A stretch of DNA of 64,000 nt from an uncultured Apibacter sp. (GCA_945280365.1 CALYQD010000004.1:8571-72570), one strand, 5' to 3'; shown: positions 46,199 through 64,000, counted from the first letter of the stretch. Translations and numbers: made by a program. The notes: a model not told the origin generated them from the letters alone.

Positions 46199-48231
46199 TT
46201 TATAGTTATTTTTTGGTAGTAATCTTTTAAAATAGTGTAAAATTCATCTTCTTCTTCAATCAATATATCATCCAGAACTTCATAATAAATTTCATTAATA
46301 CTGTCTATCAAATGATTTTTAAAAATATTGTTGTCTTTTGCATAAATATCAAAGTCTTCAAAAGAAACGCACAAACTATTTTTTGCAAAAAAATTTAAAA
46401 CATCTATTTGAATAGAAGATAAATTTTCACCATTTAAATAAATAGACTTATTTGACTCAATTGTTTTTTTGGAAACTATTTTAATTTCATTAGCATTAAT
46501 GTCTTGTGATTTTGTTGATAAACTTTCACTTTCATCTTGTAAATATTCATTTAATAACTCTACAGTTTCTGAATGTTGTTCTTGTACTTCTTTTATGATT
46601 GATTTATTAAGATTAATTTTTTTACGTCTTGCTTTATAAATGGAAGAAACTGAACTTAAAGCCTCATCTAAATTTCTAGTTTTAATTAATTTTTCTACAA
46701 TAATTTCAAAGTCATGAAACTGTTCATTAGTTTTGAAAAGATTTTTTTGTATTGTTTTAGTTAAAGGTTTATTGTTGAAAGTCGAAGATTTTAAATCATA
46801 GTACAAGTAATAAATATATAGTGATAATGCTATTTCTTTATCATACTTAGCTATGAATTTTGATGAATCAAAGAATATATTTTCAATAGAAGGATTATTT
46901 TCATTAAGTTTTCCTAATGAAATAATATCGTTTAAAAACTGCTTTGGATCTCCATTATAATTTTCCGTAATCTTAGAAAATTTTATTTTCCACCGGGTTG
47001 TATTTTGAGTATATAATTTTATATCTGTAGCTTCATCGGGAAGATTGATTATAGATGTTAATTTAAATAAAGTTTGGGTTATGGTAGGAACTATTTTTTC
47101 TTGATATAGATTATTAATTTCAGGCATATGCAGAGAAAAATCAGTATTTAGTTTTCTCTTATGGCCATAAAATTCACGGACAGCATTTTCGCAAAGTTTG
47201 AAAATATTTTGATAAAAATACTTAATTGTATCTTCAAAAGCGTAATTATAATTGTGACTACCTTTTCTGTATTTGTAATACTTTTTTATATAAAGATCTG
47301 CAATTTCTGTAATAAATTGTTCTAAATTTTTTTCTCCTTCAATTTGAGTATCTTGTAAAGTCTCAAATAATGATAAATAAAGTCTGAGTGTTTCAATTAA
47401 ACAAGCTTCTATTTCAGTAAAGGTGTTGGGTGAAAAATATAATTTATTTAATAATTCAACTTCCTTATCATTTAACTTTAGTTTGTTTTTATAGCGGTTT
47501 CCTAAACGCCAGTAATCATACCCATAGTAGTCATAAGGATTGTTTTCAATAATTCTATTTATATTTTCTTCATCGCCTATATTTTCTAATTTTTTAATTA
47601 AAAATGAAATACAGTAAGATTTAGTTCTACTATAATGAAAACCAAGAAGATCCAATTGCTTTTCCAAAACTTGAATGTCCTTGTGTACTTCATATTCATT
47701 TAATAAGTCAAATAACAGAATAAAGGCATAATTCCAATTTCCATATAAATTATTATATTCACCATTGAGGAAATCTGTTTTAAAAGCTTGATAAAATTTT
47801 TTTTGTTCTGGAGTAGCCTCATCTAAATCAGAATAAGAATATATATATTTATGAGGCCAATAGGGAACTCCATATTGATTTATTAATGGTTCATTGTAGG
47901 AAAATAAAACGTGTTTTAAATTATAGTTGTCAGAATTAAAGGTATTTGATTCTGATAAATTAGGACGAAGACTACATGTTTCATTAGAAATATCTTCAAT
48001 AGAATTATTGGATTCGTTCATTATTTTATTTGAAGTGCTATTCTCTTTAATAGTAGAGTTAGAAATAAAATTATTTATAACCTTAATAGACTCCGTATTG
48101 TTATAAGTTGAATCTTTTTCCTGTAGATTTTTTAAGTGATTATTGTAAACATTTTTATTCTTTTGTTTAGATGAATTCTTATTCAAAAAAACAACTAAAA
48201 GTGTTATAAATGTGATAATTAGTAAAATCAT
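46195..48231 (-). CDS. sngA: membrane-anchored TerB-N/TerB-C domain protein (Shango SngA-like)
   Basis: 678 aa. It has an N-terminal TM helix and an Asn/Ser-rich linker. The TerB-N-like motif is VPYWPHKYIYSYSDLDEATPEQKKFYQAF. The TerB-C-like acidic blocks are SETVELLNEYLQDESE and INEIYYEVLDDILIEEEDE. Overlaps sngB by 4 nt (ATGA). Confidence 0.65.
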   Translation of the reverse strand: MILLIITFITLLVVFLNKNSSKQKNKNVYNNHLKNLQEKDSTYNNTESIKVINNFISNSTIKENSTSNKIMNESNNSIEDISNETCSLRPNLSESNTFNSDNYNLKHVLFSYNEPLINQYGVPYWPHKYIYSYSDLDEATPEQKKFYQAFKTDFLNGEYNNLYGNWNYAFILLFDLLNEYEVHKDIQVLEKQLDLLGFHYSRTKSYCISFLIKKLENIGDEENINRIIENNPYDYYGYDYWRLGNRYKNKLKLNDKEVELLNKLYFSPNTFTEIEACLIETLRLYLSLFETLQDTQIEGEKNLEQFITEIADLYIKKYYKYRKGSHNYNYAFEDTIKYFYQNIFKLCENAVREFYGHKRKLNTDFSLHMPEINNLYQEKIVPTITQTLFKLTSIINLPDEATDIKLYTQNTTRWKIKFSKITENYNGDPKQFLNDIISLGKLNENNPSIENIFFDSSKFIAKYDKEIALSLYIYYLYYDLKSSTFNNKPLTKTIQKNLFKTNEQFHDFEIIVEKLIKTRNLDEALSSVSSIYKARRKKINLNKSIIKEVQEQHSETVELLNEYLQDESESLSTKSQDINANEIKIVSKKTIESNKSIYLNGENLSSIQIDVLNFFAKNSLCVSFEDFDIYAKDNNIFKNHLIDSINEIYYEVLDDILIEEEDEFYTILKDYYQKITIK

Positions 48232-49247: not shown

Positions 49248-49721
49248 ATGAAAAAATTATTCTTGTTTGTCATTGTGTTTATTGGATTAACACAATTGTC
49301 ATCATGTTCAGATGATGATAGTGTAAGTAAAAATGTTACACTCCAAGATCTTGGAATAGAATATGGTGCTGAATATGAAGTTCAAGTTTACGTGAAAATA
49401 GATAAAGATAAGTGGGGGTATGTAGATTTTTCTCCAAAAGTTTATATCACATTTATAGACGAAAACTTTGTACGGGAAAAAAATGAAAATGGAGCTTTTA
49501 TGAATCAATATTCATTAATACCTACCAAATTATCTTCCTATCCTAATCCAAATTTAAAAGTAGAAACTAAATTAAATTTTATCAAATACGCTCCAAATGC
49601 GGTTAAAACCTACGTAATTAACCCTAGGGAAAATTGTAAATTAATTAGAGATTCAGGGCGATTGATCCTAAAAAAACCAATAGATAATAATACTAATGAT
49701 TTTTTTAGATTGGTGAGATAA
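49248..49721 (+). CDS. hypothetical lipoprotein
   Basis: 157 aa with signal peptide and lipobox LTQLSSC. No recognised domain. Confidence 0.5.
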   Translation: MKKLFLFVIVFIGLTQLSSCSDDDSVSKNVTLQDLGIEYGAEYEVQVYVKIDKDKWGYVDFSPKVYITFIDENFVREKNENGAFMNQYSLIPTKLSSYPNPNLKVETKLNFIKYAPNAVKTYVINPRENCKLIRDSGRLILKKPIDNNTNDFFRLVR

Positions 49722-50082: not shown

Positions 50083-51390
50083 TTATATGATTTTTTCTAC
50101 ATATTTCCATATATACCCCCCACAGGTTTTACTCCTTCCATGTACAGCATCATTTATACTGCTACGAGATACGCCGGTTGATTTACCTGCTTCAATAACA
50201 GAAGGATAAGTAGCTATATGATTTCCAGAGAGGTCATATTGATAAACTACTTTAATTTTCTTTTTAGGGGGAGTTATTTTTGTTAGCTTATTTCCTTCCA
50301 TCCAAATAAAACCTCTTAAATATTGAGGCTTAGAACTGAGTATTTTTCCTAAGGTCATCTCAGGTATTCCTGTACTTTTGGAAGCTTTTGATATGCTGGG
50401 GTAAACCATTATAAGATTCCCTTCTTTATCAAACTGGCTTACTATTTTAGCGCTAATTGAGGGAGGTACGGGATCTACTTTCTGAGGCTCATAACCTTTT
50501 TTCCAAATCAAGCCACCAGCAGTTTGAGATCTTCCTTGTATACACTGGCGAATACAGCCTCTATTTATTTTAGTTTGCTGCTCAGCTTCCCATATATTAT
50601 TGTATCCGGCTAAATAATTACCCTCTTTATCATAACAACTAAGCGGTTGAGAAGATATGCTTGGTGTTACAGCAATAATTTCGGAAATATCATTTTCATA
50701 TCTCCAAATATAATTTCCTGCATATTTTTGCTTTCCAAGAATACATTTTCTAATAGCCGCTTCGTGAATTCCAGTTTGTTTATAAGCTTCCCTTATGCTT
50801 GGATAAGTGAGTAGGTAGTTACCTTGCAGGTCATATTGCTTAACTTTGATTTTAGTCTTACTTTTTTCCTGTAATTTGTTTCTTCTTTCTTTGGGCCAAA
50901 AATTTCTTATACTCGCAAATATTTCAGGTACATTAGTCCTTCCTTGTTTTGCTGTAATCCGGTTTAATTCTGCACTATCCGCCTTATAAAGGTTTTCTAT
51001 CTTATTATTAAAATTATCCCAATCTTTATGAAGGATTAGATCTTGTTTGGTTATTTTGCTGCAAAAAGCTTCATATACCTTTCTGGAAACATAAAATGAA
51101 TAAGTAATTTTTTCAATGGTTATTTTAGTTATTAAGGAATAAAAATATTTTTTGAGTATTTTATTGTAAAGTGGTTTGGGATATTGTTTTCGAATTCGTT
51201 CGGGGCGTTCATAGGATATTGTTTTTAATCCTCCTTTGGTACCTTGGTAAATAGTTCTTTTTAAATTTTTTATGCGTCCCATATTGGAAATCATCAGATA
51301 ACCTTCAAAATCGGGACAATCTTTCCAGATTTCTCCGGGAATATCTTTGAGTGATAAATTTTGATATGGATATAAAGCAGTTTTTTTCAA
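50083..51390 (-). CDS. homing-endonuclease-like protein: NUMOD4 motif + HNH_3-like domain + four tandem NUMOD1/IENR1-type HTH modules
   Basis: 435 aa with a TTG start in the track. NUMOD4-like GEIWKDCPDFEGYLMISNMGRIKNL. HNH-like LILHKDWDNFNNKIENL. It has four ~60-aa repeats of pattern Q(Y/F)D..GN....YPSI.EA.K.TG.....I...(G/H).......G(Y/F)IW. Confidence 0.7.
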   Translation of the reverse strand: MKKTALYPYQNLSLKDIPGEIWKDCPDFEGYLMISNMGRIKNLKRTIYQGTKGGLKTISYERPERIRKQYPKPLYNKILKKYFYSLITKITIEKITYSFYVSRKVYEAFCSKITKQDLILHKDWDNFNNKIENLYKADSAELNRITAKQGRTNVPEIFASIRNFWPKERRNKLQEKSKTKIKVKQYDLQGNYLLTYPSIREAYKQTGIHEAAIRKCILGKQKYAGNYIWRYENDISEIIAVTPSISSQPLSCYDKEGNYLAGYNNIWEAEQQTKINRGCIRQCIQGRSQTAGGLIWKKGYEPQKVDPVPPSISAKIVSQFDKEGNLIMVYPSISKASKSTGIPEMTLGKILSSKPQYLRGFIWMEGNKLTKITPPKKKIKVVYQYDLSGNHIATYPSVIEAGKSTGVSRSSINDAVHGRSKTCGGYIWKYVEKII

Positions 51391-51546
51391 TTTACTTACT
51401 TAATTAATTTAAAAAACAGAGAGACCTCCTATGTCTATAGTAAAAATCATTTACATTTAAAGCAATATAGCAAGGAATAGCTTATATTGTTTCTTTATAA
51501 TAAAGAAATTATTTACAGCAACAAAGATATAAAAAAAAATATTTTG

Positions 51547-51554
51547 TATGTTTG
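51547..51554 (+). promoter_or_regulatory. candidate -7 promoter element upstream of vgrG
   Basis: TATGTTTG matches TAnnTTTG, 59 nt upstream of the vgrG ATG. No clear -33 element. Confidence 0.3.
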
Positions 51555-51612
51555 CTAATCATTATTATTTTTTATTTTTAATGAAACTAATTATTAAAGA
51601 ATATGGGGCCTT

Positions 51613-53502
51613 ATGGAAAAAATAGATAAATCTGAAGTTCCTTTTACCTTTTCTAGTCCAGATGTAGTAAAAGAGAAAATTGCAAACAAATTCAATCGAT
51701 ACGGAAAAACCTCAATCACTTATGTTAGTGTTAAGATTGCCGGAGAGGATTATTTTACTGAAACCAACATTGCTAAATTAGAGATTAAACAAAAAGTAGG
51801 AGATCATCATAGTTTTGAGATTTGGTGTGATCCGGGAGAATTTAATGAAGATAATGCTTATTTATTTGAAAACTCCAGAGCTCATTTAGGTAAGCGGATT
51901 ACTTTCCAATTTCACAGGTTTGGAACTGTACAATCAATTTTTACAGGATTGATCACCCAAGTATCCACTCAAAAGCAAGACGGAGTAAAAAAAGTTATTT
52001 TGCGTGGCAATTCTCCCTCTATACTTATGGAAAACGGATTACATACAAGAAGTTTTGAAAATAAAACTTTGGAAGAGATTATAAAAGAGGTAGCTTATCC
52101 ATATGCAAAGAATTTAATTGACTTTAAAATCAATCCGAATTTTAAAGAAAAAATTCCTTATATCGTTCAATATAATGAGAGTGATTATCAATTCATAAAG
52201 CGATTAGCCTCTCGTTTTGGAGAGTATTATTATTATAACGGAGAACAACTGGTTTTTTCTGCTTGGGGAGGGAAAATAACAGAATTAGCTGAAGAGGAAG
52301 ATATTTTTAATTTCGAATTAAAAATGGAAGTGCACCCTCAGAAATTTTCTTATACAGCGTATGATGCTAAACAATCATCTGATTATAAGGTAGATTCAGA
52401 AAGTCAGAGGCTACAACAATCAGAGAATCCTTTTCAGCAATATGCCATTAATGCATCAGAAGGACTTTTTAATGTTTCTCCCACCGCTCATTTTGATAAA
52501 AGCTTATTGATAAATCAGCAGTTAGATATTGAAAGGGCTGTTCTTGCAGAAAAACGTAAAAGACAAAATTTAGTTTATATAGAGGCAACTACTAATGAAC
52601 CTAGCTTACGCCTAGGCGATATAGGTAAAGTTTCAGCCTGGATACCTAAACATAAAATTTTTAAATCCGGAAAAATTCCGATTGAAAGTTATAAGATAAA
52701 TGAAATTACTCATTGTTTTATTGAGGGAAAAGGATATACTAATACATTTATAGGAGTACCTAAAGATTTAATAACACCTCCGGATTATGACGGAAGCAAT
52801 ACCCCGGTAGCAGATATTCAACATGCAATTGTAACAGACAATAAAGATCCAAAAAAGATGGGACGTGTACGTCTTCAGTTTGTCTGGCAAAAGGCTGAAA
52901 ACAGCCAGACACCTTGGGTACAAGTAATACAACCTCATGCAGGTAGAGATAAAGGAACATATATTAATCCGGAAATAGGAGAAACTGTATTGGTAGCTTT
53001 TCAGGGAGGAAATGCAGAAGCTCCTATTGTATTGGGAACGGCTTATAATGGAGGAGAGATAGCTGCTTATTACACTGAAGGAAATGATATTAAGGTAATA
53101 CAAACAAGAAGTGGTGCCAAAATTATTTTCAATGATGCTGAAGGACAAGGCTCTATTCTAATTGAAGACCCAAGCGGTAACCGTATCTTCTTGGATGGAA
53201 AAGGCAATATTAGGACAGAAGTACCGGAGACTTTCTTTTTAGATGCTAAAAATGTAGTGGTTACGGCTTCCCAGAATATAAGTATGAGTGCAGGGGAAAA
53301 TATTTCTATTATGGCAGCAGAAGACTATAATCTGGCAGCAAGCAATATATATGAAAGTGCCGGAGAAGGTAGAGTATCTAATGCTAATGATTTTATAGAA
53401 ATTTCTAAAAAAAGTACTTATACAAGTAATGAAGATAAAATAAACTTGGAAAGTGCTTTGGAAGTTAAATCCAATAGTGCACAACAAACCAGTTTACATT
53501 AA
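51613..53502 (+). CDS. vgrG: type VI secretion spike protein VgrG (gp27-like + gp5 OB-fold + short beta-helix)
   Basis: 629 aa. It has a phage late-control-D/gp27-like region (QYNESDYQFIKRLASRFGEYYYY) and a gp5 OB-fold block (AIVTDNKDPKKMGRVRLQFVWQ...GETVLVAFQGGNAEAPIVLG). C-terminal repetitive beta-strand segments follow. Confidence 0.9.
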   Translation: MEKIDKSEVPFTFSSPDVVKEKIANKFNRYGKTSITYVSVKIAGEDYFTETNIAKLEIKQKVGDHHSFEIWCDPGEFNEDNAYLFENSRAHLGKRITFQFHRFGTVQSIFTGLITQVSTQKQDGVKKVILRGNSPSILMENGLHTRSFENKTLEEIIKEVAYPYAKNLIDFKINPNFKEKIPYIVQYNESDYQFIKRLASRFGEYYYYNGEQLVFSAWGGKITELAEEEDIFNFELKMEVHPQKFSYTAYDAKQSSDYKVDSESQRLQQSENPFQQYAINASEGLFNVSPTAHFDKSLLINQQLDIERAVLAEKRKRQNLVYIEATTNEPSLRLGDIGKVSAWIPKHKIFKSGKIPIESYKINEITHCFIEGKGYTNTFIGVPKDLITPPDYDGSNTPVADIQHAIVTDNKDPKKMGRVRLQFVWQKAENSQTPWVQVIQPHAGRDKGTYINPEIGETVLVAFQGGNAEAPIVLGTAYNGGEIAAYYTEGNDIKVIQTRSGAKIIFNDAEGQGSILIEDPSGNRIFLDGKGNIRTEVPETFFLDAKNVVVTASQNISMSAGENISIMAAEDYNLAASNIYESAGEGRVSNANDFIEISKKSTYTSNEDKINLESALEVKSNSAQQTSLH

Positions 53503-53513
53503 ACTATAGTAAT

Positions 53514-54776
53514 ATGGGAGTTATAGAAGGCGGAAAAATAATACGAACTATAGGAGGGGAAAGTATAAAAATTGCAAAAAAGTCCATTACTTTAACTGCT
53601 ACAGAGGGTAATCTTACTTTTAATGCAGCTACTAAAGTAGAAATGGTGGGCAAACAAAATGGAGTAAAATATCTAAATGATTATAAACCTCCAGAGGAAA
53701 TACCTACTACTTTAAGAGTTACTAAAGTTATAGGGCCTGATATTATTAAAGGCGGAGGTGTCTATGATTATCAAGCAGTAGAATTTAATAGAAAAAATTT
53801 TTCATTAGTAGAGCTGAACAAGCTTATATGGAATGTAAAATATGATGATTCCGCAGAATTTTTAGGATTTGAAGATGAAAAAAATAAAAATTCATATATT
53901 ATTTCAGATAAGAAGATTGGAGTAAAAAGAATTCATATTTTATCTGAAAATGTAATAGGAAAGAAAAAAATCAAAATATATCCCTTTTTTAATTCTCCTT
54001 CAGAAAATGTTTGTGTTATATCTCATTTGGAACTTCCATCAGGAGTTTTTGTCTGGGCAGAGACCAAGGGTACTGGGCATGTATTTCTAACTGTTCATAA
54101 GGAGAATAACATATATTTATATACTTATGGAAGATATGATGATGCTTATATGATTTCGCTAGGCACCATGGGGGAAGGAGTTTTAATCAGATATACTAAC
54201 AAGTTAGCCATAGAATACATGAAAAAAGAATTATATAGGCTTGATTGCAAAGTATATCAGATTAAAGATGTTAAAGAGGATGATTTGATTGAGATATTTG
54301 ATAAGATATGGAATAGTTCAACAGAAAAACCAGACAATAAATCAACATCAGATTCAGTGAAAGAATATGGTAGGGTTATAGATGATTATGATTTAACTGG
54401 TAATAATTGTACTACTAAAACATGTGATGCCTTGAAGAAAGCAGGAACAAATATTTTTAATTTTGATGTCTATTTATTCAATAAAAAAATGTATTCCTAT
54501 AAAGAATATTTTACTATTCCCAGCTCACTGAATGATTTCCTAAACGAACAAAAGGAAACTAATTCCGATATTGTAGTTTCTACAGAGATCATGAAATCAA
54601 CTTATGAAAATATACAATCTATAGAAACATTAGATAAAACAGGATCTTCGGGTGAAACTTCAGGAAGTTCAGGGGATGCATCAGGAAGTTCAGCAAATTC
54701 TTCCAACAGTGAAACGATCAGCAGCGGATCAAGCCCTGCCTCAAGTGGAGGAATTTATGGTTCATCTTCCAATTAA
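53514..54776 (+). CDS. putative T6SS effector: VgrG-tip-like N-terminal strands, permuted papain-fold (His-before-Cys) hydrolase-like domain, Ser/Gly-rich tail
   Basis: 420 aa, starting 11 nt after vgrG. The N-terminus ESIKIAKKSITLTATEGNLTFNAATKVEMVG continues the VgrG C-terminal repeat style. TGHVFLTVHKENNIYLYTYGRY plus YDLTGNNCTTKTCDALKKAG resemble the PPPDE/LRAT-type H...NC motifs. The tail is SSGETSGSSGDASGSS... Confidence 0.4.
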   Translation: MGVIEGGKIIRTIGGESIKIAKKSITLTATEGNLTFNAATKVEMVGKQNGVKYLNDYKPPEEIPTTLRVTKVIGPDIIKGGGVYDYQAVEFNRKNFSLVELNKLIWNVKYDDSAEFLGFEDEKNKNSYIISDKKIGVKRIHILSENVIGKKKIKIYPFFNSPSENVCVISHLELPSGVFVWAETKGTGHVFLTVHKENNIYLYTYGRYDDAYMISLGTMGEGVLIRYTNKLAIEYMKKELYRLDCKVYQIKDVKEDDLIEIFDKIWNSSTEKPDNKSTSDSVKEYGRVIDDYDLTGNNCTTKTCDALKKAGTNIFNFDVYLFNKKMYSYKEYFTIPSSLNDFLNEQKETNSDIVVSTEIMKSTYENIQSIETLDKTGSSGETSGSSGDASGSSANSSNSETISSGSSPASSGGIYGSSSN

Positions 54777-54788
54777 ACAATTATTAAT

Positions 54789-55025
54789 ATGAAAAAAAAT
54801 AATTTTATGAAAATAATATTAGGACTTTTTTTTGTAATTGTAGTTATAGTAGAAATAGCACTGATTTTAAATGCATTTCTCACAGTAAAATATCAAATAG
54901 AAGAAGCTGAAAACATGACTCAGGTATTAAATAAAATATATAGTATTCTAAATAATGGAGTATATATAATTATTTTTGACTTGATTTATTTATTAGTCCT
55001 TCATATTCTCTATTTTAAAAAGTAA
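54789..55025 (+). CDS. small two-TM membrane protein (immunity candidate)
   Basis: 78 aa with two hydrophobic helices, immediately downstream of the putative effector. Confidence 0.4.
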   Translation: MKKNNFMKIILGLFFVIVVIVEIALILNAFLTVKYQIEEAENMTQVLNKIYSILNNGVYIIIFDLIYLLVLHILYFKK

Positions 55026-55027
55026 CA

Positions 55028-55642
55028 GTGCAAAATAAGAGTTGGGAACATACCCGTATATATAAAACAGAGCATAACTTAGAAGTAAAGGAACGCTCAC
55101 AAACCAAACAAAGCAGAGTTTCTTTTGACATGGGAATCAATTGCAATACTAAGGATGAAAGCATACGTAAAGTATTCACCCGGGAAAATTACCTGATTAA
55201 TTCTAAAATACCTAAAGAACATCATATCCGTTTGTTATATGAATTGGAACAAGCAGTTTACCCATTGGAAATAGAAGTAAATACGTATGAAAATTTTGAA
55301 AGAATCCCGGGCCATGGCCTGTGGTTTTCTACCTGGCAAAAAAAAGCAGATGCAATTTTACAGGAGAAATACAGTCGTGAGTTTGTCGAAAGCCTGAAAA
55401 ACCAGGTACAGGGAAATTTGGAGACCGAAGAAAAACTTAAACAAAAAATACAGGAAAAAGCCTTCTGGAAATTATACTTTTTTGGGATGCAAAATGCTCA
55501 GAATGATAATACCTTACGTTGGAATATCTTAAAAGTTGGTACCCTTTATTTTACAGGACATGTACAGACAAAAATTGAAGAAAATAAATGGGTATCTGTT
55601 TATCGGGAGAATCAGGTAAAACCGGAAGAAAGTTTAGCTCAG
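55028..55642 (+). repeat. dispersed direct repeat, copy 1 (paralogous 5' ~615 bp shared with 56483-57097)
   Basis: Long identical nucleotide runs, for example ATTAATTCTAAAATACCTAAAGAACATCATATCCGTTTGTTATATGAATTGGAACA in both copies. Confidence 0.85.
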
Positions 55643-55948
55643 AAATTAGCGGATCATTTAAATGCCATAGTTTATGCATTTTTAAGACGAAGTAATTATA
55701 CATCTACCTGGCTTGACGGTGGCGACCAATCATACACTAAAAATTACATAACCATTGAAGATGAAGATATAAGCAATCCGCTAAATCCCATGGATTGGTA
55801 TAGAAAGTTAAACAGAAAAGGATGGGACCAAGCTTTGTGGAATACTTCCGGGGCATATATGGCGCCAACAAGCGGCAAAACACCAGGGGGCCTTCTTGAA
55901 GAAGGTATGTTTATTTTTGAAAAGGGCAAAAAAGCAAGAAAAAAATAA
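55028..55948 (+). CDS. unknown-family protein, paralogue A (conserved N-terminal ~205 aa, unique C-terminal ~100 aa)
   Basis: 306 aa. The GTG start is supported by alignment to the paralogue B start (MQNKSWEH.RIYK vs MQIKPWDN.RIYK). The two are colinear up to ...KPEES and then unrelated. Confidence 0.6.
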   Translation: MQNKSWEHTRIYKTEHNLEVKERSQTKQSRVSFDMGINCNTKDESIRKVFTRENYLINSKIPKEHHIRLLYELEQAVYPLEIEVNTYENFERIPGHGLWFSTWQKKADAILQEKYSREFVESLKNQVQGNLETEEKLKQKIQEKAFWKLYFFGMQNAQNDNTLRWNILKVGTLYFTGHVQTKIEENKWVSVYRENQVKPEESLAQKLADHLNAIVYAFLRRSNYTSTWLDGGDQSYTKNYITIEDEDISNPLNPMDWYRKLNRKGWDQALWNTSGAYMAPTSGKTPGGLLEEGMFIFEKGKKARKK

Positions 55949-55954
55949 AATAAT

Positions 55955-56362
55955 ATGAAATACTGTAAATCACTAATTTTTGCTTTTATTATATATGTTT
56001 TAGCAAGTTTTGCGACTTATTTTTCCATGCATGTATATTCAACTGATATTTCATCATCATGTTTTGAATGCTCATATAAGAAAGATATTTTTTTGTCTTC
56101 CATTCATATAAGTGTAATTTTTCTTTTATTGATTCTACTAAAAAATATCTTGAAAAAAAAATGGAGTATTTCAATATTCTTCACGATTATATTTGCAATA
56201 CTTGTTTTCTTTAACAACTATAATATTTTTGTAGATAGGGTTTCATCGTGGAGTAGTTACACCTTTACCGAAGAACTTCTAAGTGTCCTGTCAAATTCTT
56301 ATTTGTACTTGGGGATCAGCACTATATTAGTATTTGTTTTATTAAAGTTATTTAAATTTTAA
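55955..56362 (+). CDS. polytopic small membrane protein (immunity candidate for paralogue A)
   Basis: 135 aa with about 4 predicted TM helices. It starts 6 nt after paralogue A. Confidence 0.45.
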   Translation: MKYCKSLIFAFIIYVLASFATYFSMHVYSTDISSSCFECSYKKDIFLSSIHISVIFLLLILLKNILKKKWSISIFFTIIFAILVFFNNYNIFVDRVSSWSSYTFTEELLSVLSNSYLYLGISTILVFVLLKLFKF

Positions 56363-56482
56363 AATAAAATCCTTTTAACAAGTACACAGCCTATAATCGG
56401 TTTAAGTTTAATAAAATTCATTGATAAAAAAAAATAATCAATGGTTATAATAATTTAGATACAGAAAACTAAGACGGAAATA

Positions 56483-57097
56483 ATGCAAATTAAACCTTGG
56501 GATAATATCCGTATATATAAAGTAGAACATACTTTGAAAGTAAAAGAAGGCCTACAGGTTAAGGAGAGTAGGATAACTTTTGACATGGGAATCAGTTGCA
56601 ATATAAAGAATGGTAGCATACGAAAGTTATTTACCCGAGAGAACTGCCTGATTAATTCTAAAATACCTAAAGAACATCATATCCGTTTGTTATATGAATT
56701 GGAACAGGCTATTTATCCGCTGGAAATAGAGGTAAACCGGTATGGGAATTATGAAAAAATACCAGGTTATGCTTTATGGTTTTCCAACTGGCAAAATAAA
56801 GCAGAAAAAATATTGAAAGAGAACTACCGAGGAGAATTTGCCGAAAGCTTGAAAAACCAGTTACAGGAAAATTTGGAGACCGAAGAAAAACTCAAACAAA
56901 AAATACAGGAAGAAGCCTTCTGGAGATTGTACTTTTTTGGGATGCAAAATGCCCAGAATGATAAGACCTTGCGTTGGAACGTCTTAAAAGCAGGTACTCT
57001 TTATTTTACGGGAGATGTACAGACAAGCATTGAAGAAAATAAACTGATATCTGTTTACGGGGGAAAATCGGAGAAACCGGAAGAAAGTTTCACTGAA
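56483..57097 (+). repeat. dispersed direct repeat, copy 2
   Basis: See copy 1. Confidence 0.85.
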
Positions 57098-57352
57098 AAC
57101 CTTAACATCCTCTTACGAAAGAAAAAAAATTCTAAACATTACCTAATGCCGGGTAATATAGAGTCAAGCTGTATGGTAAAATCCGTTTGGGAGAAAGACA
57201 TCGGAAAACTGCTTTATAAGGCATCAGAAATTGAAGTAAATTCAGAAGATAAAAACTATCTTTATTCAGAAAAAATAGAGATGAAATATCAAGGAATAAG
57301 TATAAGAAAAGAAACTAACCCTAAATCTTTTATTGTTTCAAGAAACAAATAA
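56483..57352 (+). CDS. unknown-family protein, paralogue B (same N-terminal domain, different C-terminus)
   Basis: 289 aa. See paralogue A. The C-terminal ~85 aa are unrelated to A. Confidence 0.6.
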   Translation: MQIKPWDNIRIYKVEHTLKVKEGLQVKESRITFDMGISCNIKNGSIRKLFTRENCLINSKIPKEHHIRLLYELEQAIYPLEIEVNRYGNYEKIPGYALWFSNWQNKAEKILKENYRGEFAESLKNQLQENLETEEKLKQKIQEEAFWRLYFFGMQNAQNDKTLRWNVLKAGTLYFTGDVQTSIEENKLISVYGGKSEKPEESFTENLNILLRKKKNSKHYLMPGNIESSCMVKSVWEKDIGKLLYKASEIEVNSEDKNYLYSEKIEMKYQGISIRKETNPKSFIVSRNK

Positions 57353-57379
57353 AGAAAAGAGAAAGAAAATTAAAAAGAT

Positions 57380-60300
57380 ATGGCAGAAACGACAAAAAAG
57401 CGAGTAGTAGTAGTAGAAGGAGCCCGTTTAAACTGTTCATTGGGATCATTGCCGACGGTATCCCTTAAGGTAAAACACAAAGATGATGATAAATATTACA
57501 TTAATGAAAAAAAGATAGCGACTTGGCTGGAAGATAATAAAGATCATATGGATTTTGGTGTATGTAACAGAAGTAGCTCAAAACCGAAATGTACCCCAAA
57601 TATCAGCTGGAGTGATTATTATGAGAATGCGGAGTTTGGAAAAAAGAAAATTCTTATAGACCAGTCAAAAGGAACATGTAAAATAGGGGGAGGTACCGTG
57701 ATTATAAAAGAACACGGACAAAGCGCCCAACCTTCTTCCCGTATATATAAAAAAAATAAGAAGGATTCCTATGAAATCTATATGCTCAGTCCTAAGGTAG
57801 CAGCCTCTAATGGAAAAAAACTACCTTCAGTAAGTAAAATAGACTTGGTTGTTTCCCCGGCACAACGTATTTCATCCAACCGGGAAGTATCGTTTGAAAT
57901 AGGAGGTAGTATTAAAAGCATCAAGTTAGTAGCCACTGTAGGAGCAAAAGATGATAAAAGCCTGGTAAGCTGGGCGTTTTATAAAGGTGATAATCAAAAA
58001 AACAGGTTCAAGACCTATCTGGAATACGGAAGTGAACTTATTGAGAATCTGGAGGCCCTTCCTGAGGGTAAAACTACTATTTTCGGATATGGCGAAACAC
58101 CCGAGGGAAATTCTACCAAGATAATTATCAACCGGAAACATAATAAGCTTGAGGGCATTTCAATGAAGTTGTTGAACGTAAAGCTGGAATCTGTGGGCAA
58201 GGCTCCTAAGAATACCCAGATAGTTTTTAGTCCTAAATATACCTTTGCGAATTCTCCCAAATTATCCTTGAATCAGGTCGGTTGGCAGCAAAAGACTAAA
58301 TGGAATATCAAAGACGAGAAAGGGAACATTTTGTATACCACTGCTCCCGGTTTTTCCGCCAACCGTAACCAGGGAGTAATATCTACTTCCTACTCAAACA
58401 ATTATTTAACCGCTATATTTAAGAACAACGGTAATTACCAGATAGAGCTAGAGGATTTTTCACGGACATCGTTGGGAATGTTGCCAGATATAAAGACCCT
58501 TTCGCTTCGAATAGTAAACCGTTCGGCCAGAACAATTATAAATAAGGGTTTGCCAAAAATACGTAAAGAAGATTCCATTCATTTGTTGGCCTCCGGGATT
58601 GAATTTGATTATGGAATAAATCAACTCGGCAATCGAGCATTCTGGCATATACAAAAAGACAGTGGAAAAACGATTAGTTTAGGGCTTCGTGCAGAAGTAA
58701 AGATGAACGTTCCCGAGCTTATAGAAGAATTCAGGAAAAAACAGGTAATAATATCGAACCCTTATGGGGAATATAAATTTCGGATTGATGGGGAAGAAAA
58801 GGATGTTATTTCGATAGGCACCAGTTCGGATACAGCGGTAATAGAGGTAGCGAAAAACCGTATGGAAAGTATCAGCGGTCCTGATAAAATACCTGTAGGA
58901 GCAGTGGTTACATATAAAACAAAAGTCTTAATGTCTTTGGTGGGCTCGGAGCATATCCGGTGGATACAGCCTGCTGCCCCTTTTATAAAGTTTAACCTTT
59001 CTTCAGATCATAAACAAGCCACCTTACAGCTTAATAAACCGGGGAAAGCCTATTTTTCTGCCTACCTTGAAGGAGAGGATGCAAGTACCAAAGAGGTGAA
59101 GAAAACCGTAGAGGCAACATATATTTACCTGGAAAAAGCCCTGTGGTGTTATGCAAATGGTAAACGAAGGGCTGAAACCGGATGGGAAGAAGAAAATTAT
59201 ATTCATGTCTCACTAGAAGGCCTCAGCAGTATCCCGGTAAAACTTAAAGTATGGGTAAAGCACCCCGATGAGGGAAAGGTTGGAAGTTTGTCTTACGAAA
59301 ATTGTCTGTTAAAAGAAATAGATTCCTCCCTGAACGGTAACGGAAGCCTTCAAACATCTTTTATAGTAGATAAGGAACTCAAAGAGAAACTACAAAAAAT
59401 ATATCCAGAAGAATCGCCCCAAGCCAAGTTGTTTTTTACGCTGGAATTTACAGCAGGGGGAATACTGGATTTATCAAAAGTGAGGCTGATTGATAAAGGA
59501 AGCTCCGAAGAAATACCCTTTGTGGAAAAACAAGGGAAAAACCTATACTTTGTATTAGATGCAGATGAGGATTTAAAAATCCCTGCAAGGCCACGCATTA
59601 CGGCTATCAACTTTTCAAATGAAGCAGGCGACGATATACAGGTGGGAGTTACCCAATATGGTAAAAAACACACCATTTGGGTAAATACTGTAGGAATGAC
59701 TAAGGAAAAGCTGGTGGTTATAGTTTATAAAAAGTTGTTGAAGGATGACATGATAGAAACGTACAACAATAAAGATAAAGCATTTGCAGTTACCGCGCAG
59801 GTAAAGAAATATGAAGAGCAGGAAGTGGGAACGGATGGTTTGTTGGAACTGGACTTTATCCCTGAGAAAAAAGATGGAGAGGGCGATCCTCAATTGTTTT
59901 ACATTTCCGTATTTAAAAAACAAAAGAATGAAAAGGACGAAACCATACTGGTAGAGGAAGGTTCCCAGCTTAAATCATTAGATAGTTTACCTTTTGACAA
60001 GGAACTGAATGAATATGCCTCACAGGTAGGAATTGCAATGCCTACCTTGGAAGAAGGCCAAAGCCCGACAGCTGAACAGCTAAATGATATTGTATCTAAG
60101 TTTTTTCATTTTTATAATCCGCTGTATGTGTCTGAAACAGGGACTATTGAGGATCAGCAGGTTATTTCTCCGGTTCTAGTCGAAAGAGGTAATAGTAATA
60201 AGAAAGGAGAATGCCCAAGATGCAAAGAAGATTTTACAGTAGATATATTAAAGAAGGTATATAAATCTGCCACGACCAAAGATTTAGAAGAACTGGCAGT

Positions 60301-61693
60301 AGCGTTAAACAAGTATAAAGAAATATTTAAACTAGATACCTGTGCTCGCAAGGCACATTTCTTTGCACAATCGCGTCAGGAAGCAGGATTATCTCTAACA
60401 TCAGGACTAAGAGGAGAAAGTTTTAATTATATAGTATCAGGATTATCCGGAGCAGGATTAAAAGCTTTTGAACAAGTCCCAGGAGGTAAAGATATAGCTA
60501 ATAAGCATGCAAGGAAAAATAGAAGTGATCCGGCAGTATCAGAATCCAGTCAAATAATCTTAGCCAATTGGGCATATGGATACCATTATTCAACAGGAAA
60601 GAATTTTAAAAATCGTGGAGCGAATGATGGTTGGAACTTTAGAGGGCGGGGCTTATTCCAGATAACAGGAAGAAGTACATATGAAAAAGTACAGAAAATA
60701 ATAGAAGCTTATGCAAAAGATTCAGGTATTAATATTTACAAGAAGTATGATAGCCCCGATAAAGCTATTAGCGTAAAAGACGGTTGGATGACCCCCGAAG
60801 AAGCAGCTTTAACCGGGATGATAGACTGGTTTAAAGATGGCATGTACCTAAAAGCAGATGAAACAGGAAAAATATCTGATGATGAAGTGGTGAATTCAAT
60901 TATAAAGATTATCAATGAAAAAACATCATCTTATCCTGAAAGGAGAGTATGGTATAGAGGAGGAAAAGCAGGGGATTTAACAGTTAGCGAATCAAATTCA
61001 ACTAAGTCAATTTTCAGGGTAGCAGAATGCGGGAAAGTAGATGAACCTTTGAAATATGAAAACTCAGATTTAAAGATACAAGAGGGCATAAAATGGTTAT
61101 TAAGCAAATGTATAGACCAAACAGAAGTAAACAAAAAGCCATATAAAGTAACTTATAAAAACGACGATGATAGAATTTCGGAGAAAGGAGAAAATACGAT
61201 GGATTGTTCGGAATTAGTATGCCGTTATTTACAGAAAATAGAATGGAGTAAAAAGGTAATGGGAGGTAATACTCGAATACTCTATGAATTTGCAGAAAAA
61301 TACCCTATCTACTTACAAAAACATGACGATTTAGATTATAAGCCTCAAATAGGAGATATATTTATCTGGAAGAGTTCTTCAGGAATGGGGCATACCGGAG
61401 TGATCATTGACTATGAAGAAATACCCAATAAAGACAATGAAATAGAAGGAGTTGTAACCACTGTGGAAGCAATAAGTTCAAGTGAAATTCCTTATGGGAT
61501 GGAAAAAAAATTGACAATGGGAGGGGTGATTAAATTAAAATGGAAAAAGGATTCATACCATTTATTGGATCATAAAGTAACTGCCCAAAGAAGTCCCTGC
61601 CGATTTTATACACCGTTAATACATTACAGTAAAGCAGATAAAAAGGTAAATTGGAATAAAAATAATTATAGTTTTGAAATAATAAAGAAATGA
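57380..61693 (+). CDS. large polymorphic T6SS effector: PAAR-like DUF4280 N-terminus, ~800-aa uncharacterised middle, GH19/COG3179-like glycoside hydrolase + NlpC/P60 peptidase C-terminus
   Basis: 1437 aa. DUF4280-like VVVVEGARLNCSLGSLPTVSLKV...FGVCN...GTCKIGGGTVIIKEHGQ. GH19-like AHFFAQSRQEAG and FRGRGLFQITGRSTYEKV. NlpC/P60-like MDCSELVCRYL ... GMGHTGVII. Confidence 0.75.
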   Translation: MAETTKKRVVVVEGARLNCSLGSLPTVSLKVKHKDDDKYYINEKKIATWLEDNKDHMDFGVCNRSSSKPKCTPNISWSDYYENAEFGKKKILIDQSKGTCKIGGGTVIIKEHGQSAQPSSRIYKKNKKDSYEIYMLSPKVAASNGKKLPSVSKIDLVVSPAQRISSNREVSFEIGGSIKSIKLVATVGAKDDKSLVSWAFYKGDNQKNRFKTYLEYGSELIENLEALPEGKTTIFGYGETPEGNSTKIIINRKHNKLEGISMKLLNVKLESVGKAPKNTQIVFSPKYTFANSPKLSLNQVGWQQKTKWNIKDEKGNILYTTAPGFSANRNQGVISTSYSNNYLTAIFKNNGNYQIELEDFSRTSLGMLPDIKTLSLRIVNRSARTIINKGLPKIRKEDSIHLLASGIEFDYGINQLGNRAFWHIQKDSGKTISLGLRAEVKMNVPELIEEFRKKQVIISNPYGEYKFRIDGEEKDVISIGTSSDTAVIEVAKNRMESISGPDKIPVGAVVTYKTKVLMSLVGSEHIRWIQPAAPFIKFNLSSDHKQATLQLNKPGKAYFSAYLEGEDASTKEVKKTVEATYIYLEKALWCYANGKRRAETGWEEENYIHVSLEGLSSIPVKLKVWVKHPDEGKVGSLSYENCLLKEIDSSLNGNGSLQTSFIVDKELKEKLQKIYPEESPQAKLFFTLEFTAGGILDLSKVRLIDKGSSEEIPFVEKQGKNLYFVLDADEDLKIPARPRITAINFSNEAGDDIQVGVTQYGKKHTIWVNTVGMTKEKLVVIVYKKLLKDDMIETYNNKDKAFAVTAQVKKYEEQEVGTDGLLELDFIPEKKDGEGDPQLFYISVFKKQKNEKDETILVEEGSQLKSLDSLPFDKELNEYASQVGIAMPTLEEGQSPTAEQLNDIVSKFFHFYNPLYVSETGTIEDQQVISPVLVERGNSNKKGECPRCKEDFTVDILKKVYKSATTKDLEELAVALNKYKEIFKLDTCARKAHFFAQSRQEAGLSLTSGLRGESFNYIVSGLSGAGLKAFEQVPGGKDIANKHARKNRSDPAVSESSQIILANWAYGYHYSTGKNFKNRGANDGWNFRGRGLFQITGRSTYEKVQKIIEAYAKDSGINIYKKYDSPDKAISVKDGWMTPEEAALTGMIDWFKDGMYLKADETGKISDDEVVNSIIKIINEKTSSYPERRVWYRGGKAGDLTVSESNSTKSIFRVAECGKVDEPLKYENSDLKIQEGIKWLLSKCIDQTEVNKKPYKVTYKNDDDRISEKGENTMDCSELVCRYLQKIEWSKKVMGGNTRILYEFAEKYPIYLQKHDDLDYKPQIGDIFIWKSSSGMGHTGVIIDYEEIPNKDNEIEGVVTTVEAISSSEIPYGMEKKLTMGGVIKLKWKKDSYHLLDHKVTAQRSPCRFYTPLIHYSKADKKVNWNKNNYSFEIIKK

Positions 61694-62949
61694 TTATGAA
61701 AAAAAGAATAATATTTTTCAGTTTATTCATATTATTTTTTTCCTGTAGAGGAGAAGAAAATAAGAAAGAAGAAAAAAAAGAAAAGCCTATTATAGAAATT
61801 GCACAAAATACACAAATGGATAACATTGGTTTACAAAATACGCAAAAGGATAGCATTAATTTACAAAAAATAGAAGAACATATAGAACTACAAAAAAGAG
61901 TATTTGTAGAAGACCATATTCCTGACAATGAATATATAGCCACACAAGAGGATTTAGATTTACAACTACTTTTATTAGAAAAATCATTAGAGAATAGCGG
62001 TTATAAATTCCCGGATTATTCCTTATTTAAAGAGAGGATAAAGTATGTATTTGGAATAGATATAGACAAAAGTGAAGAAAATATTGTTACATTATATGCA
62101 GAAGAACCAGTCTATGACAAGGGAAAAGCATATACGGATGAAGAAATAAAACATATACTATTAAAAGAAACGAATCTAACTTTTGATCAATTTAAATATA
62201 GTTTTTCAAGTTATGATTGGAATTTATTTATAGATAAACAAAGGAAAATAATAACTCCTATGGTATTTCTGAATGATTTAATAAAAATTAAGGGGAAAGA
62301 TAAAAAAGAGTATAGTATACAACAAAATTTAAAAGTATTATCCTTAAATAAATATTTAATATATAATGACAAAGCTAGTTTAAATTATTTATTACCTAGA
62401 GAAGCATATTTATCAAGGTCATTATTATTAAATTTTAATTATGATAAGGAAGATAAAATTAATGAAAATGTAATGGATAGTTTATACACTTCCTATAACC
62501 ATAATGAACCTGTAAGAGAATCAGAATTTAGATCATTGATTTTTGTAATGAAAGATGAGCCCGGTCAAGACCGAAGCCGTTTATACCTAAGAGAAGGAAT
62601 ATTAAAAACCATTGAAAATATAACTAATGAAAATGAGGGTAAATATGCTATAACAATAAAACATGCGGTTGCAAGCATAGTAGTAAAAAAAAGAGATGGT
62701 AAAAATATAGGCTGGACAAATGAAGAACTATACAAAATAGTAGCTTATTCTGCTAATTATATAGATCCATTGTATTGGAAGTATCATAAATCAGAAACAG
62801 TAGTATGGGGAAATGGCGATATATTAGGGGTCTATGATTCTTTATTACCAGAAAAAGAATGGGAAGCAATGTTAAAACAATTTAAGGAAAATAATTATTA
62901 TAATTTACCTAATTTAAAAGGCTTAGTAAAAGAAATAATGAATTGGTAG
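61690..62949 (+). CDS. lipoprotein, immunity candidate for the cell-wall hydrolase effector
   Basis: 419 aa with an ATGA overlap with the effector stop. The second M gives MKKRIIFFSLFILFFSC (lipobox). I recognise no family. Confidence 0.5.
   Translation: MIMKKRIIFFSLFILFFSCRGEENKKEEKKEKPIIEIAQNTQMDNIGLQNTQKDSINLQKIEEHIELQKRVFVEDHIPDNEYIATQEDLDLQLLLLEKSLENSGYKFPDYSLFKERIKYVFGIDIDKSEENIVTLYAEEPVYDKGKAYTDEEIKHILLKETNLTFDQFKYSFSSYDWNLFIDKQRKIITPMVFLNDLIKIKGKDKKEYSIQQNLKVLSLNKYLIYNDKASLNYLLPREAYLSRSLLLNFNYDKEDKINENVMDSLYTSYNHNEPVRESEFRSLIFVMKDEPGQDRSRLYLREGILKTIENITNENEGKYAITIKHAVASIVVKKRDGKNIGWTNEELYKIVAYSANYIDPLYWKYHKSETVVWGNGDILGVYDSLLPEKEWEAMLKQFKENNYYNLPNLKGLVKEIMNW
61804..61863 (+). repeat. 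in-frame tandem repeat, 2 x 30 bp, inside the lipoprotein gene
   Basis: CAAAATACACAAATGGATAACATTGGTTTA / CAAAATACGCAAAAGGATAGCATTAATTTA, encoding QNTQMDNIGL / QNTQKDSINL. Confidence 0.8.
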
Positions 62950-62976
62950 AATAAAAATATCATTTCTCCCATATGA

Positions 62977-64000
62977 GAGGAAAGGGGTAATAGTAAGAAG
63001 ACAAGAACATGTTATTGCGATCGTGATTTTACAGAAGAAGAAGTAAGGTCTTTGGTAAAAACAATAAAAGGAAGAGAAGTAATTTGGGAAGGATTAAAAG
63101 AATCATGTCAGGTAGAGGATAAAACCTTTAAAAGCCTAACTTTTGAGTTAAACAAAATGTTTCGCAAATACAATATAAATAAATGTATACAAAAGATAAC
63201 TTTTTTAGCACAGGTAAACGCTGAGACAGGCTTTTTTTCAATTTCACATGAAGAATTGAGCAAATATTTATCCAGTAAATCAAAATATAAAGGAAGAGGA
63301 TTAATTCAATTAACCGGAAATCTAAATAAGGCAAAAACATCCTACGATGACCCCGGCCCTTATAAGGAATATGGAAAATATATAGGGGATGAAAATAAGT
63401 TTATAAACAATCCTAATTTGATCGCAACCGATTTGCATTATACTGTAGATAGTTCCGGATGGGAATGGAGTGTATCTAAAAAAGCTTTGCCCTATACAAA
63501 AGATTACAAAAACGCATCAAAAAATGCGGATGCAAAATGGAAACGAGAAACGTTTCCTAAAGGAGTAGGAAAGACTTTAAATGAAATAGCTCTAGCCTAT
63601 GAAGAAACAGGAGAAGAAAAATATTTTTGGTTTCAATCTAAAATACTAAATGGATACTCACTATCAGATAGAAATTCACCAGATCCTCATGGATGGTCTA
63701 AACGAAAAGAAGGTCTACGAAAGTTAAAACAGTGGTTTAAGTATGATAAGAATATTTGTAATGGAGAAAAGGAGTTGGATTATGTAGAAGAAGATGAGGC
63801 ACCATGGATACCATTTGCTAAAGAAGAACTTAAAAAATATGGAGGAATAAGACAAATTCATAGCCCACTAAAAGAAAAAGTAGTTGAATATTTTAAAGTA
63901 GCAAAAGCTGCTTGGTATGATCATACTGGATTTTGGTGTGGAGCATTTGTAAGATGGTGTTTTGCTCAAACTAAAGATTACAATTATGTTTTTGATTCAT
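62977..64000 (+). CDS. orphan toxin module without an obvious start codon: GH19/COG3179-like hydrolase + CHAP-like domain (3' end beyond the window)
   Basis: The frame is open from the TGA at 62974-62976 to the window end (341 codons), so it is absent from the ORF track. It begins EERGNSKKTRTCYCDRDFTEEE, compared with VERGNSNKKGECPRCKEDFT at aa ~935 of the main effector. It carries FLAQVNAETG, KGRGLIQLTG and FWCGAFVRWC. The first in-frame ATG is at 63157. Confidence 0.65.

Follow-up and report, generated by a model that had tools for sequence, protein, structure and literature searches.

The 64,000-nucleotide (nt) stretch of DNA from an uncultured Apibacter sp. that is considered here (GCA_945280365.1, CALYQD010000004.1:8571-72570; hereafter the window) ends in a reading frame without an evident beginning, which opens on the + strand at position 62977, behind a predicted effector gene and its candidate immunity gene, and is still open at position 64000. 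The question raised by this locus is whether such a frame represents a gene in its own right, the debris of one, or the displaced part of another. A preliminary description of the region had likened it to the start-less orphan modules of Rhs and CdiA toxins, a comparison which is supported by a fusion, an array, and a junction found in three related loci (L003, L084, and L085, respectively). It is concluded that 62977-64000 (+) is probably an orphaned C-terminal toxin cassette of a polymorphic type VI secretion system (T6SS) effector family, whose members carry a swappable peptidoglycan-hydrolase tail on a DUF4280 (PAAR-like) body; judged from its sequence, it is most plausibly an intact remnant left by C-terminal displacement.

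The resident full-length member of this family is a polymorphic effector of 1437 amino acids (aa) encoded at 57380..61693 (+), in which an N-terminal DUF4280 domain (aa 11-114) leads into a long conserved body and, past a junction at aa ~910-940, the tail comprises a GH19-like domain and then, at aa ~1256-1348, an Amidase_5/CHAP-like peptidase. Its stop codon overlaps the start of the next gene (61690..62949, +) in an ATGA at positions 61690-61693, and the product of the latter, a 419-aa predicted lipoprotein (signal ...LFILFFSC), is the immunity candidate for the resident toxin. The TAG which ends this gene (62947-62949) is in frame with a TGA at 62974-62976, and direct reading of the sequence places the opening of the orphan frame immediately after this TGA, from which 341 codons extend to the window end. 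In-frame ATG, GTG, and TTG codons are all absent from 62977 up to a TTG at 63052..63054 (+), the first possible start, which lies 14 codons past the CxC motif described below and was chosen by the gene caller for P0001, the database protein representing its product of this locus. The first in-frame ATG (63157..63159, +) encodes the Met of a conserved LNxMF motif inside the GH19-like domain and, because most full-length effectors also possess this Met, represents a domain residue and not a dedicated start. As P0001 comprises 447 aa from TTG 63052, the frame reaches ~64395, includes a complete second domain, and amounts to 472 codons overall. The frame had been described as opening at 62977, staying open to the window end, going unlisted among the open reading frames (ORFs), and containing no ATG before the effector-like junction and none in frame before 63157; all of this is borne out by the sequence, GTG and TTG being likewise absent before 63052. 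The frame is missing from the ORF listing solely because it runs off the window, and the interruption just past the window end which had been envisaged does not occur, P0001 carrying the frame on to ~64395.

The relationship between this frame and the resident effector is written into its first codons. The residues EERGNSKKTRTCYCDRDFT of the orphan match VERGNSNKKGECPRCKEDFT, corresponding to aa 934-953 of the 1437-aa effector, and BLASTP aligned the first 86 residues of the orphan with aa 935-1004 of the effector (E=4e-5), with a second piece pairing KGRGLIQLTG of the orphan with RGRGLFQITG of the effector. At the nucleotide level, the junction copy (repeat D1; 62962..63011, +), which is regarded as the scar of C-terminal displacement, spans 50 nt with 74% identity to 60164-60213 and constitutes the largest direct repeat in 57000-64000; the effector 22-mer GAAAGAGGTAATAGTAATAAGA recurs at 62980-63001 with 2 mismatches, compared to 0 matches in 100 shuffles. 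While the earlier observation that the frame start mirrors the effector junction is thus upheld, the nucleotide alignment which it had called for brought out a point it had missed, namely that the homology is already present ahead of the TGA. Where the effector has VISPVLVERGNS (VISPVLVERGNSNKK), the orphan has IISPI*EERGNS (in full IISPI*EERGNSKKT, the asterisk denoting a stop), and the TGA occupies the place of an effector Leu codon; the homology therefore includes body linker which is untranslatable here, as expected of a displacement scar. The 27-nt spacer itself (62950..62976, +) consists of 12 nt of unrelated sequence followed by the body-junction remnant (ATTTCTCCC..., IISPI) up to the in-frame TGA. 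In the resident effector, the conserved pre-toxin junction, at which C-termini appear to be exchanged, is located at 60107..60213 (+; FYNPLYVSETGTIEDQQVISPVLVERGNSNKK), and this linker is common to different toxin types in L003 and L084. The sole body-derived part of the orphan is ISP..ERG, upstream of the CxC motif, while CxC-D-[FL]-T marks the conserved beginning of the toxin domain and is also found in relatives with quite different N-termini, among them P0024 and P0027, in both of which DUF4280 is fused directly, and proteins from Chryseobacterium that measure 737-936 aa.

It had further been suggested that the orphan could replace the resident C-terminus through recombination at this short junction. 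Recombination of the RecA type has a minimum homology requirement, and the longest exact run shared by the orphan and the resident gene in the window genome is 11 nt; a return of the orphan to the body by this route is accordingly improbable in this genome, where ~50 nt at 74% identity remain. A strain resembling L083 could support it, L083 being a close relative in which the orphan type (87% identity) lies behind a different immunity gene and retains a longer scar (FYNPLYVSETGTIEDQQVISPVLVERGNSNK) of ~95 nt, with ~95% identity to 60130-60205 of the window effector and a longest exact run of 38 nt. L083 switches to the orphan type at ...AATAAGA/CAAGAACATG (the solidus marking the switch), which defines the exchange point.

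A frame without a start may also reflect a start which has been lost from view, through assembly error or a recent one-base mutation, in which case an indel would be masking the start of a small gene, either normal or phase-variable. ATG 62973, positioned 4 nt upstream of the frame opening, is the candidate: it is out of frame with the orphan and is terminated after five codons (MRGKG*; ATG AGA GGA AAG GGG TAA), yet one G fewer in the GGGG run at 62984-62987 would join it to the orphan frame (MRGKGNSKKTRTCYC...), and L085 is arranged alike. L085 is, however, an independent metagenome contig, and its sequence (KRIMNW*NKNIISPI*EERGNAKKTRTCYCDRDFT) exhibits the same immunity gene (90% identical to the 419-aa candidate), an identical spacer corresponding to 62950-62976, the TGA, and no start. 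The window and L085 differ at nearby bases, and the two assemblies agree on the out-of-frame layout despite these differences; because the junction is identical, TGA included, the start-less arrangement is not a sequencing error, an alternative which the preliminary description had itself raised. A run of four G residues is moreover short for slipped-strand phase variation, L083 possesses an uninterrupted body junction in place of this ATG, and the short ATG frame ends differently in the two assemblies (GGG TAA in the window and TGC TAA in L085), so that no conserved ribosomal frameshift site is present. A hidden start is, therefore, considered highly improbable. Programmed +1 frameshifting from ATG 62973 was rejected as a candidate since the GGG-TAA of the window and the TGC-TAA of L085 are not conserved.

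The cassette itself (62977..64000, continuing to ~64395; +) is predicted to encode two enzymatic domains. The first, GH19-like (~63010-63770), contains an AETG catalytic motif and KGRGLIQLTG, and the second, a CHAP/TIGR02594-like cysteine peptidase, begins at ~63826 with FWCGAF and lies mostly past the window end. Matches of the orphan tail to Pfam GH19 (E=3e-4; 20-21 bits against a cut-off of 25.5), Pfam CHAP (E=1e-3; 19.9 bits against 26), and NCBIfam TIGR02594 (E=1e-14; 54.7 bits against 70.55) fall below the respective gathering cut-offs, and the tail is therefore placed on a divergent branch. A profile of the toxin-tail family searched against the PDB retrieved two endolysins of GH19 type from phages (9ms7 and 4ok7, at E~3e-7) and, after them, GH19 chitinases. 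The AlphaFold2 model attained a mean pLDDT (predicted local distance difference test) of 66.6, its GH19-like part being poorly modelled, and Foldseek found no match in the PDB below E=0.05 (the best was a CHAP endolysin at E=0.056, with a GH19 endolysin at E=1.3); given the limited use of this model, the domain assignment rests on sequence profiles. The AETG and E..S motifs are invariant in the family alignment, and the Cys of WCGAF and the His of SHVAF are conserved. Because the resident tail has the same plan, i.e., a GH19-like domain followed by an Amidase_5/CHAP-like peptidase, the two tails are taken, by sequence comparison, to be distant homologues with a common GH19-like and papain-like cysteine-peptidase layout rather than unrelated modules. 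Of the earlier proposal that the orphan encodes a different GH19-like and CHAP-like tail sharing the junction alone, the domain assignment has thus been retained as a prediction, while the notion that nothing but the junction is shared has not.

The orphan retains 70 of the 73 covered residues (96%) which are invariant in six full-length effectors, a value within the leave-one-out range of full-length controls, and its toxin coding sequence is therefore deemed intact. This result bears directly on the view that the frame is a piece of a pseudogene in decay, serving no purpose now or later, whose junction similarity reflects nothing more than common domain ancestry. Such a view may draw on the brevity and degeneracy of the junction homology, with its longest exact run of 11 nt, on the in-frame stop in the peptidase domain of L083 (a 2.3x-coverage contig), and on the small fragments which are all that is left in other genomes (L084 12558-12671, and L009). 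A 472-codon frame which has stayed open in DNA of ~30% G+C content (GC), with 96% of the invariant residues preserved, is not the product expected of decay, and IISP...ERGNS belongs to the body linker, not to the toxin domain, preceding different toxin types in full-length genes. We accordingly assign this view very little probability. The L083 stop is located at ~1296-1300 (…DLEHI*DIKD…), where the window encodes E, and may represent decay or an error in this 2.3x-coverage contig.

If the cassette was once the tail of an effector, the same tail should be encountered elsewhere behind a complete body, and this is the case. For the effector, the immunity gene, and the orphan alike, the closest relatives come from Apibacter (Weeksellaceae), and the source is probably an Apibacter-like flavobacterium living with bees or other insects. 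The 1388-aa effector of Apibacter muscae G8 (L003) possesses a body 44-46% identical to that of the window effector, followed by the junction ...IISPVLVERGESTKTRTCYCDRDFTEEEV... (NPLYVSETGTITDRDIISPVLVERGESTKTRTCYCDRDFTEEEVKSLVKTIKG), beyond which 62% identity to the orphan extends over 341 aa. The tail type of the orphan (O-type, as distinct from the R-type of the resident effector) is also carried on DUF4280 bodies in L001, L004, L008, L011, and L014. The comparison with strains bearing this C-terminus on a DUF4280 body, as originally suggested, has therefore yielded positive examples. The resident body is 44-54% identical to those of the L003 and L084 effectors, while the C-termini differ. 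In L001 (2931-7189), the DUF4280 effector with the O-type tail is divided between two ORFs, one of 860 aa and one of 573 aa, which overlap by 46 nt, representing a frameshift or an assembly error in a metagenome-assembled genome (MAG); L002, a second assembly of the same sequence, displays an identical split. The L008 contig is labelled MAG: Limnohabitans sp., a betaproteobacterium, but bears a Flavobacteriia-type DUF4280 effector with an orphan array and is likeliest mis-binned.

These fusions also weigh on the most credible of the rival explanations, namely that the frame is an ordinary stand-alone gene initiated at TTG 63052 or ATG 63157, encoding a peptidoglycan hydrolase of 412-447 aa which would serve either as cargo of the T6SS, in the role of an effector, or as a lytic enzyme with a housekeeping function. 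In favour of this, the frame is unbroken with its catalytic motifs in place, and no terminator separates it from the immunity gene, so that it is probably transcribed. Translation in Bacteroidetes does not require a Shine-Dalgarno sequence, ATG 63157 lies in an A-rich context, and the orphan of L086 has an ATG 22 codons in. The homology to the effector junction nevertheless begins before any start, even before a stop codon, and the CxC-DFT motif, with which the toxin domain starts in all full-length relatives, would be cut off. Homologous orphans have gene-called starts at a different internal position in each genome, some of which drop the region just before the catalytic Glu (P0009 and P0010). 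A delivery domain, a signal peptide, and a promoter motif are all wanting: the orphan has neither DUF4280 nor a signal peptide, the Bacteroidetes -7 box (TAnnTTTG) is absent from 62600-63160 (560 nt before 63160), and sigma-70-type promoter matches did not exceed the shuffled expectation (11 found versus 14.7 expected). The same tail, moreover, forms part of ~1400-aa effectors elsewhere. An ordinary stand-alone gene is, therefore, held to be unlikely.

The arrangement of the relatives provides further support for the interpretation of the frame as a displaced cassette. In Apibacter sp. ESL0404 (L084, CP048267), a 1397-aa effector is followed by imm1, orphan1, imm2, orphan2, and imm3, and then by housekeeping genes. 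Orphan1 is 55% identical to the resident tail of the window and orphan2 62% identical to the window orphan, while the main L084 effector carries an O-type GH19 domain (59% identity); the resident and orphan types are exchanged between the two genomes, and the type expressed in one is therefore orphaned in the other. Consistent with this exchange, the 419-aa immunity candidate of the window is 58.5% identical to imm2, which follows the R-type orphan in L084. Arrays in which an effector-immunity pair precedes an orphan-immunity pair were identified in L084, L086, L019, L008, and L012, with a further array in L009, and immunity-only arrays of the same family in L011 and L014. An imm3-like lipoprotein gene lies directly after the P0001-type tail in nine loci (L001/L002, L004, L006, L007, L011, L012, L014, L024, and L084), and after a gap or a different C-terminal end in L008, L019, and L086. 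The 5' ends of the orphans differ from genome to genome: some fall in the linker, some precisely at the CxC motif, and others deeper, at 35-70 aa into the GH19-like domain or 109 aa in. Such scatter is what random breakpoints, and not a conserved start, would produce, and it speaks for illegitimate 3' crossovers rather than a selected start. L084 additionally contains a ~150-nt direct repeat after imm1 and imm3 (7250-7400 and 12530-12680), in which AAATAAAATTTAAAATAAAGACAACTTTAAC is accompanied by ~38 initial codons from a GH19 fragment of R-type that opens with DTCARKAHFFAQ; its second copy constitutes a tiny third orphan remnant beside tgt, and the same remnant is present beside tgt in L086 (3470-3601). 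This repeat may mark the borders of an inserted orphan block. Directly upstream of the L084 effector lies a cas9-like gene (1-1397; HNH_4, RuvC_III), where the window has a vgrG cluster, and the effector array therefore occupies different neighbourhoods in different genomes.

We propose the following history for the window. An ancestral effector would have carried the O-type tail, and incoming DNA comprising conserved body, an R-type tail, and the corresponding immunity gene would have been recombined into it through a 5' crossover within the body, homologous in nature, and an illegitimate 3' crossover 12 nt past the incoming immunity gene. The old tail would thereby have been moved downstream, deprived of a start codon and a delivery domain but retaining ~15 codons of its old junction (IISPI*EERGNS), and the old immunity gene would have moved along with it. 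As no + strand terminator-like site occurs in 61500-64000, and hence none between the immunity gene and the orphan, the latter is probably transcribed by read-through; it would be co-transcribed with the effector-immunity operon, its toxin part presumably not being made as a deliverable effector. Its persistence may be explained by linkage to a downstream cognate immunity lipoprotein gene past the window end, which would protect the cell against neighbours firing the O-type toxin and would keep the pair under selection, the orphan also serving as a potential donor of toxin sequence. Were it joined to a body, the tail would be expected to be delivered on the VgrG spike and to cut peptidoglycan through its GH19-like glycosidase and CHAP-like peptidase.

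Several points weigh against this interpretation. The end of the orphan and its putative cognate immunity gene lie past 64000, outside the window, and TTG 63052 or ATG 63157 could in principle yield a truncated stand-alone protein. The direction of the event, in which R displaced O, is deduced from gene order only. The toxin frame displays no decay, as would an expressed gene, and the ratio of nonsynonymous to synonymous substitution rates (dN/dS) of the orphan (0.59 versus L083, and 0.68 overall versus L085) is non-discriminating, being based on few substitutions and affected by mosaic recombination patches; the value for the immunity gene versus L085 (0.55) likewise derives from few substitutions and mosaic patches.

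The state of preservation may, alternatively, indicate that the orphan is not silent but a conditionally expressed stand-alone toxin, produced through a 1-nt slip or an internal start, which would represent a payload class free of a delivery domain or a weapon of self-lysis or "bet-hedging." This would fit the perfect preservation of the frame and the position of ATG 62973 one base out of frame across GGGG in two independent assemblies; we regard it as very unlikely. An R-type immunity gene adjacent to an O-type orphan occurs in both the window and ESL0404 at ~60% protein identity, and a related possibility is that the orphan frames of Apibacter lineages owe their openness to selection rather than to recency. 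Two further expedients by which the frame might be expressed were rejected. Read-through of the in-frame TAG and TGA into an immunity-toxin fusion, and an alternative genetic code with TGA as sense, are both contradicted by the use of TGA as the real stop of the effector (ATGA overlap, 61690-61693), and to our knowledge there is no precedent for the fusion of a lipoprotein with the toxin of its neighbour.

The displaced cassette resembles, and departs from, several known systems; it would function in the manner of Rhs and CdiA orphan modules, yet it belongs to neither family. C-terminal displacement of Rhs tails has been studied experimentally in Salmonella and E. coli, and orphan cdiA-CT/cdiI modules of contact-dependent inhibition loci are downstream start-less cassettes which are regarded as a reservoir for tail switching. 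The likeness to the latter lies in the start-less toxin-immunity cassettes situated downstream of a main gene with a short junction in common; the CdiA system, however, employs a type V secretion system where a T6SS is concerned here, the junction reads VLVERGNS and not VENN, and the remnant is shorter and more degenerate than in typical CdiA orphans. Neither TPS/FHA repeats nor the VENN pre-toxin domain were matched in the effector by Pfam at E<=0.01. Orphan rhs-CT/rhsI arrays attributed to "C-terminal displacement" have been reported in the bee-gut bacteria Snodgrassella and Gilliamella (PMC5727410, PMC8125069), and displacement of this kind is included in the general framework of polymorphic toxins (PMC3482391). 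The Rhs arrays and the present family have in common a complete effector gene with its immunity gene, behind which start-less 3' toxin fragments lie in the same orientation, each paired with an immunity gene of its own (a putative one in the window); these fragments keep a piece of pre-toxin sequence, and their toxin types are fused to full-length genes in other strains. In contrast to Rhs proteins, the effector is devoid of Rhs/YD repeats (the Pfam scan of the 1437-aa protein found no RHS families) and of PxxxxDPxGL, consisting of DUF4280 and an uncharacterised body of ~800 aa with the junction ...NPLYVSETG..ISPVLVERG..CxC.DFT, and its toxins are predicted to hydrolyse the cell wall from the periplasm, with lipoproteins as immunities, rather than to act as nucleases in the cytoplasm.

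Orphan immunity arrays are known from the auxiliary T6SS clusters of Vibrio cholerae. A comparable situation is found in the acquired interbacterial defence (AID) loci of Bacteroidales (cited in PMC13402684 and PMC8125069). As in these arrays, sequential displacement would leave protective old immunity genes behind, of which the immunity-only arrays in L011 and L014 are examples, while in the window the toxin part is also kept, and intact. With regard to enzymology, the Tge glycoside hydrolases and Tae amidases represent peptidoglycan-hydrolase effectors of the T6SS. These, together with the GH19 phage endolysins (PDB 9ms7 and 4ok7), match what is predicted for the present tails, namely a GH19-like glycosidase fold, a papain-like Cys peptidase, and a periplasmic lipoprotein as immunity; here, by contrast, both predicted activities are combined in one tail behind a PAAR-like body, on a divergent branch known from sequence.

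Literature searches turned up no account of orphan arrays among DUF4280 effectors, and a survey of bee-gut T6SS toxins covered Rhs and VgrG only, judging the Rhs proteins of Apibacter to be linked to the type IX secretion system (PMC8125069). The locus would extend C-terminal displacement, a familiar route of diversification in the toxin genes of bacteria such as those for Rhs and CdiA, to large effectors with a DUF4280/PAAR-like body that belong to the Bacteroidota-type T6SS, relatives with such effectors being found among bee-gut Apibacter and other Flavobacteriia. It also suggests a rule for annotation, according to which short "hypothetical" or "CHAP domain" genes with odd starts behind such effectors are displaced tails and the next gene encodes the immunity protein. 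Furthermore, strain-level arms races would have left a readable record in the way resident and orphan types change places from one genome to another.

The immunity proteins of these arrays appear to be composed of two parts. In L084 (1777-12529), the GH19-like domain is common to the effector and orphan2 (90%), whereas the peptidase is not, and of their immunity genes, imm1 and imm3, the C-terminal half alone is shared (75% over 222 aa). In L085 (1700-2404), an orphan O-type GH19 domain is joined at the linker C.GEKEL to a different peptidase, and this orphan resembles the L084 effector at its 3' end, as the immunity gene behind it resembles imm1 at its start. These patterns suggest that the C-terminal half of the immunity protein neutralises the GH19-like domain and its N-terminal half the peptidase, and that a second recombination point may be located between the two toxin domains. 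Such a pairing of immunity halves with toxin domains would be testable.

Within the resident effector, DUF4280 (PF14107) was detected at E=8.6e-14 (52.5 bits against a cut-off of 26.3), and a PAAR-like role is ascribed to this domain (PMC5014421). The other Pfam matches on the 1437-aa protein are confined to Amidase_5 (E=8e-5), CHAP, and a weak, below-cut-off match to CH_CAMSAP2_N, an unrelated calponin-homology family. The 419-aa immunity candidate has no Pfam or NCBIfam match, and its gene contains a 30-nt tandem duplication with 83% identity at 61803-61862, specifying the peptide repeat QNTQMDNIGL/QNTQKDSINL in the linker just past the lipoprotein signal. GC ranges from 25 to 41% across 51000-64000 and falls along 57380-64000, from ~39-41% in the effector body and ~34-37% in the resident tail to ~25% in the immunity gene and ~29-33% in the orphan, a stepwise profile which fits a mosaic origin of the parts. 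The cluster to which these genes belong, a satellite T6SS effector cluster, is headed by vgrG (51613..53502, +), which encodes the spike protein and matches Pfam Phage_GPD (E=4e-20) and Phage_base_V (E=5e-23) above the cut-offs; five small genes without family matches separate it from the effector. Immediately upstream of vgrG, and divergent from it, a 434-aa NUMOD1/NUMOD4 protein of the homing-endonuclease type is encoded at 50083-51390 (-). A few kilobases upstream of vgrG, a three-gene block at 42762-48231 (-) resembles a phage-defence system, comprising a DEAD/Helicase_C protein of 706 aa, a BrxC/BrxD-family ATPase of 436 aa (E=7e-145), and a TerB-C-domain protein of 677 aa, and an unannotated ORF of 157 aa is present at 49248-49721.

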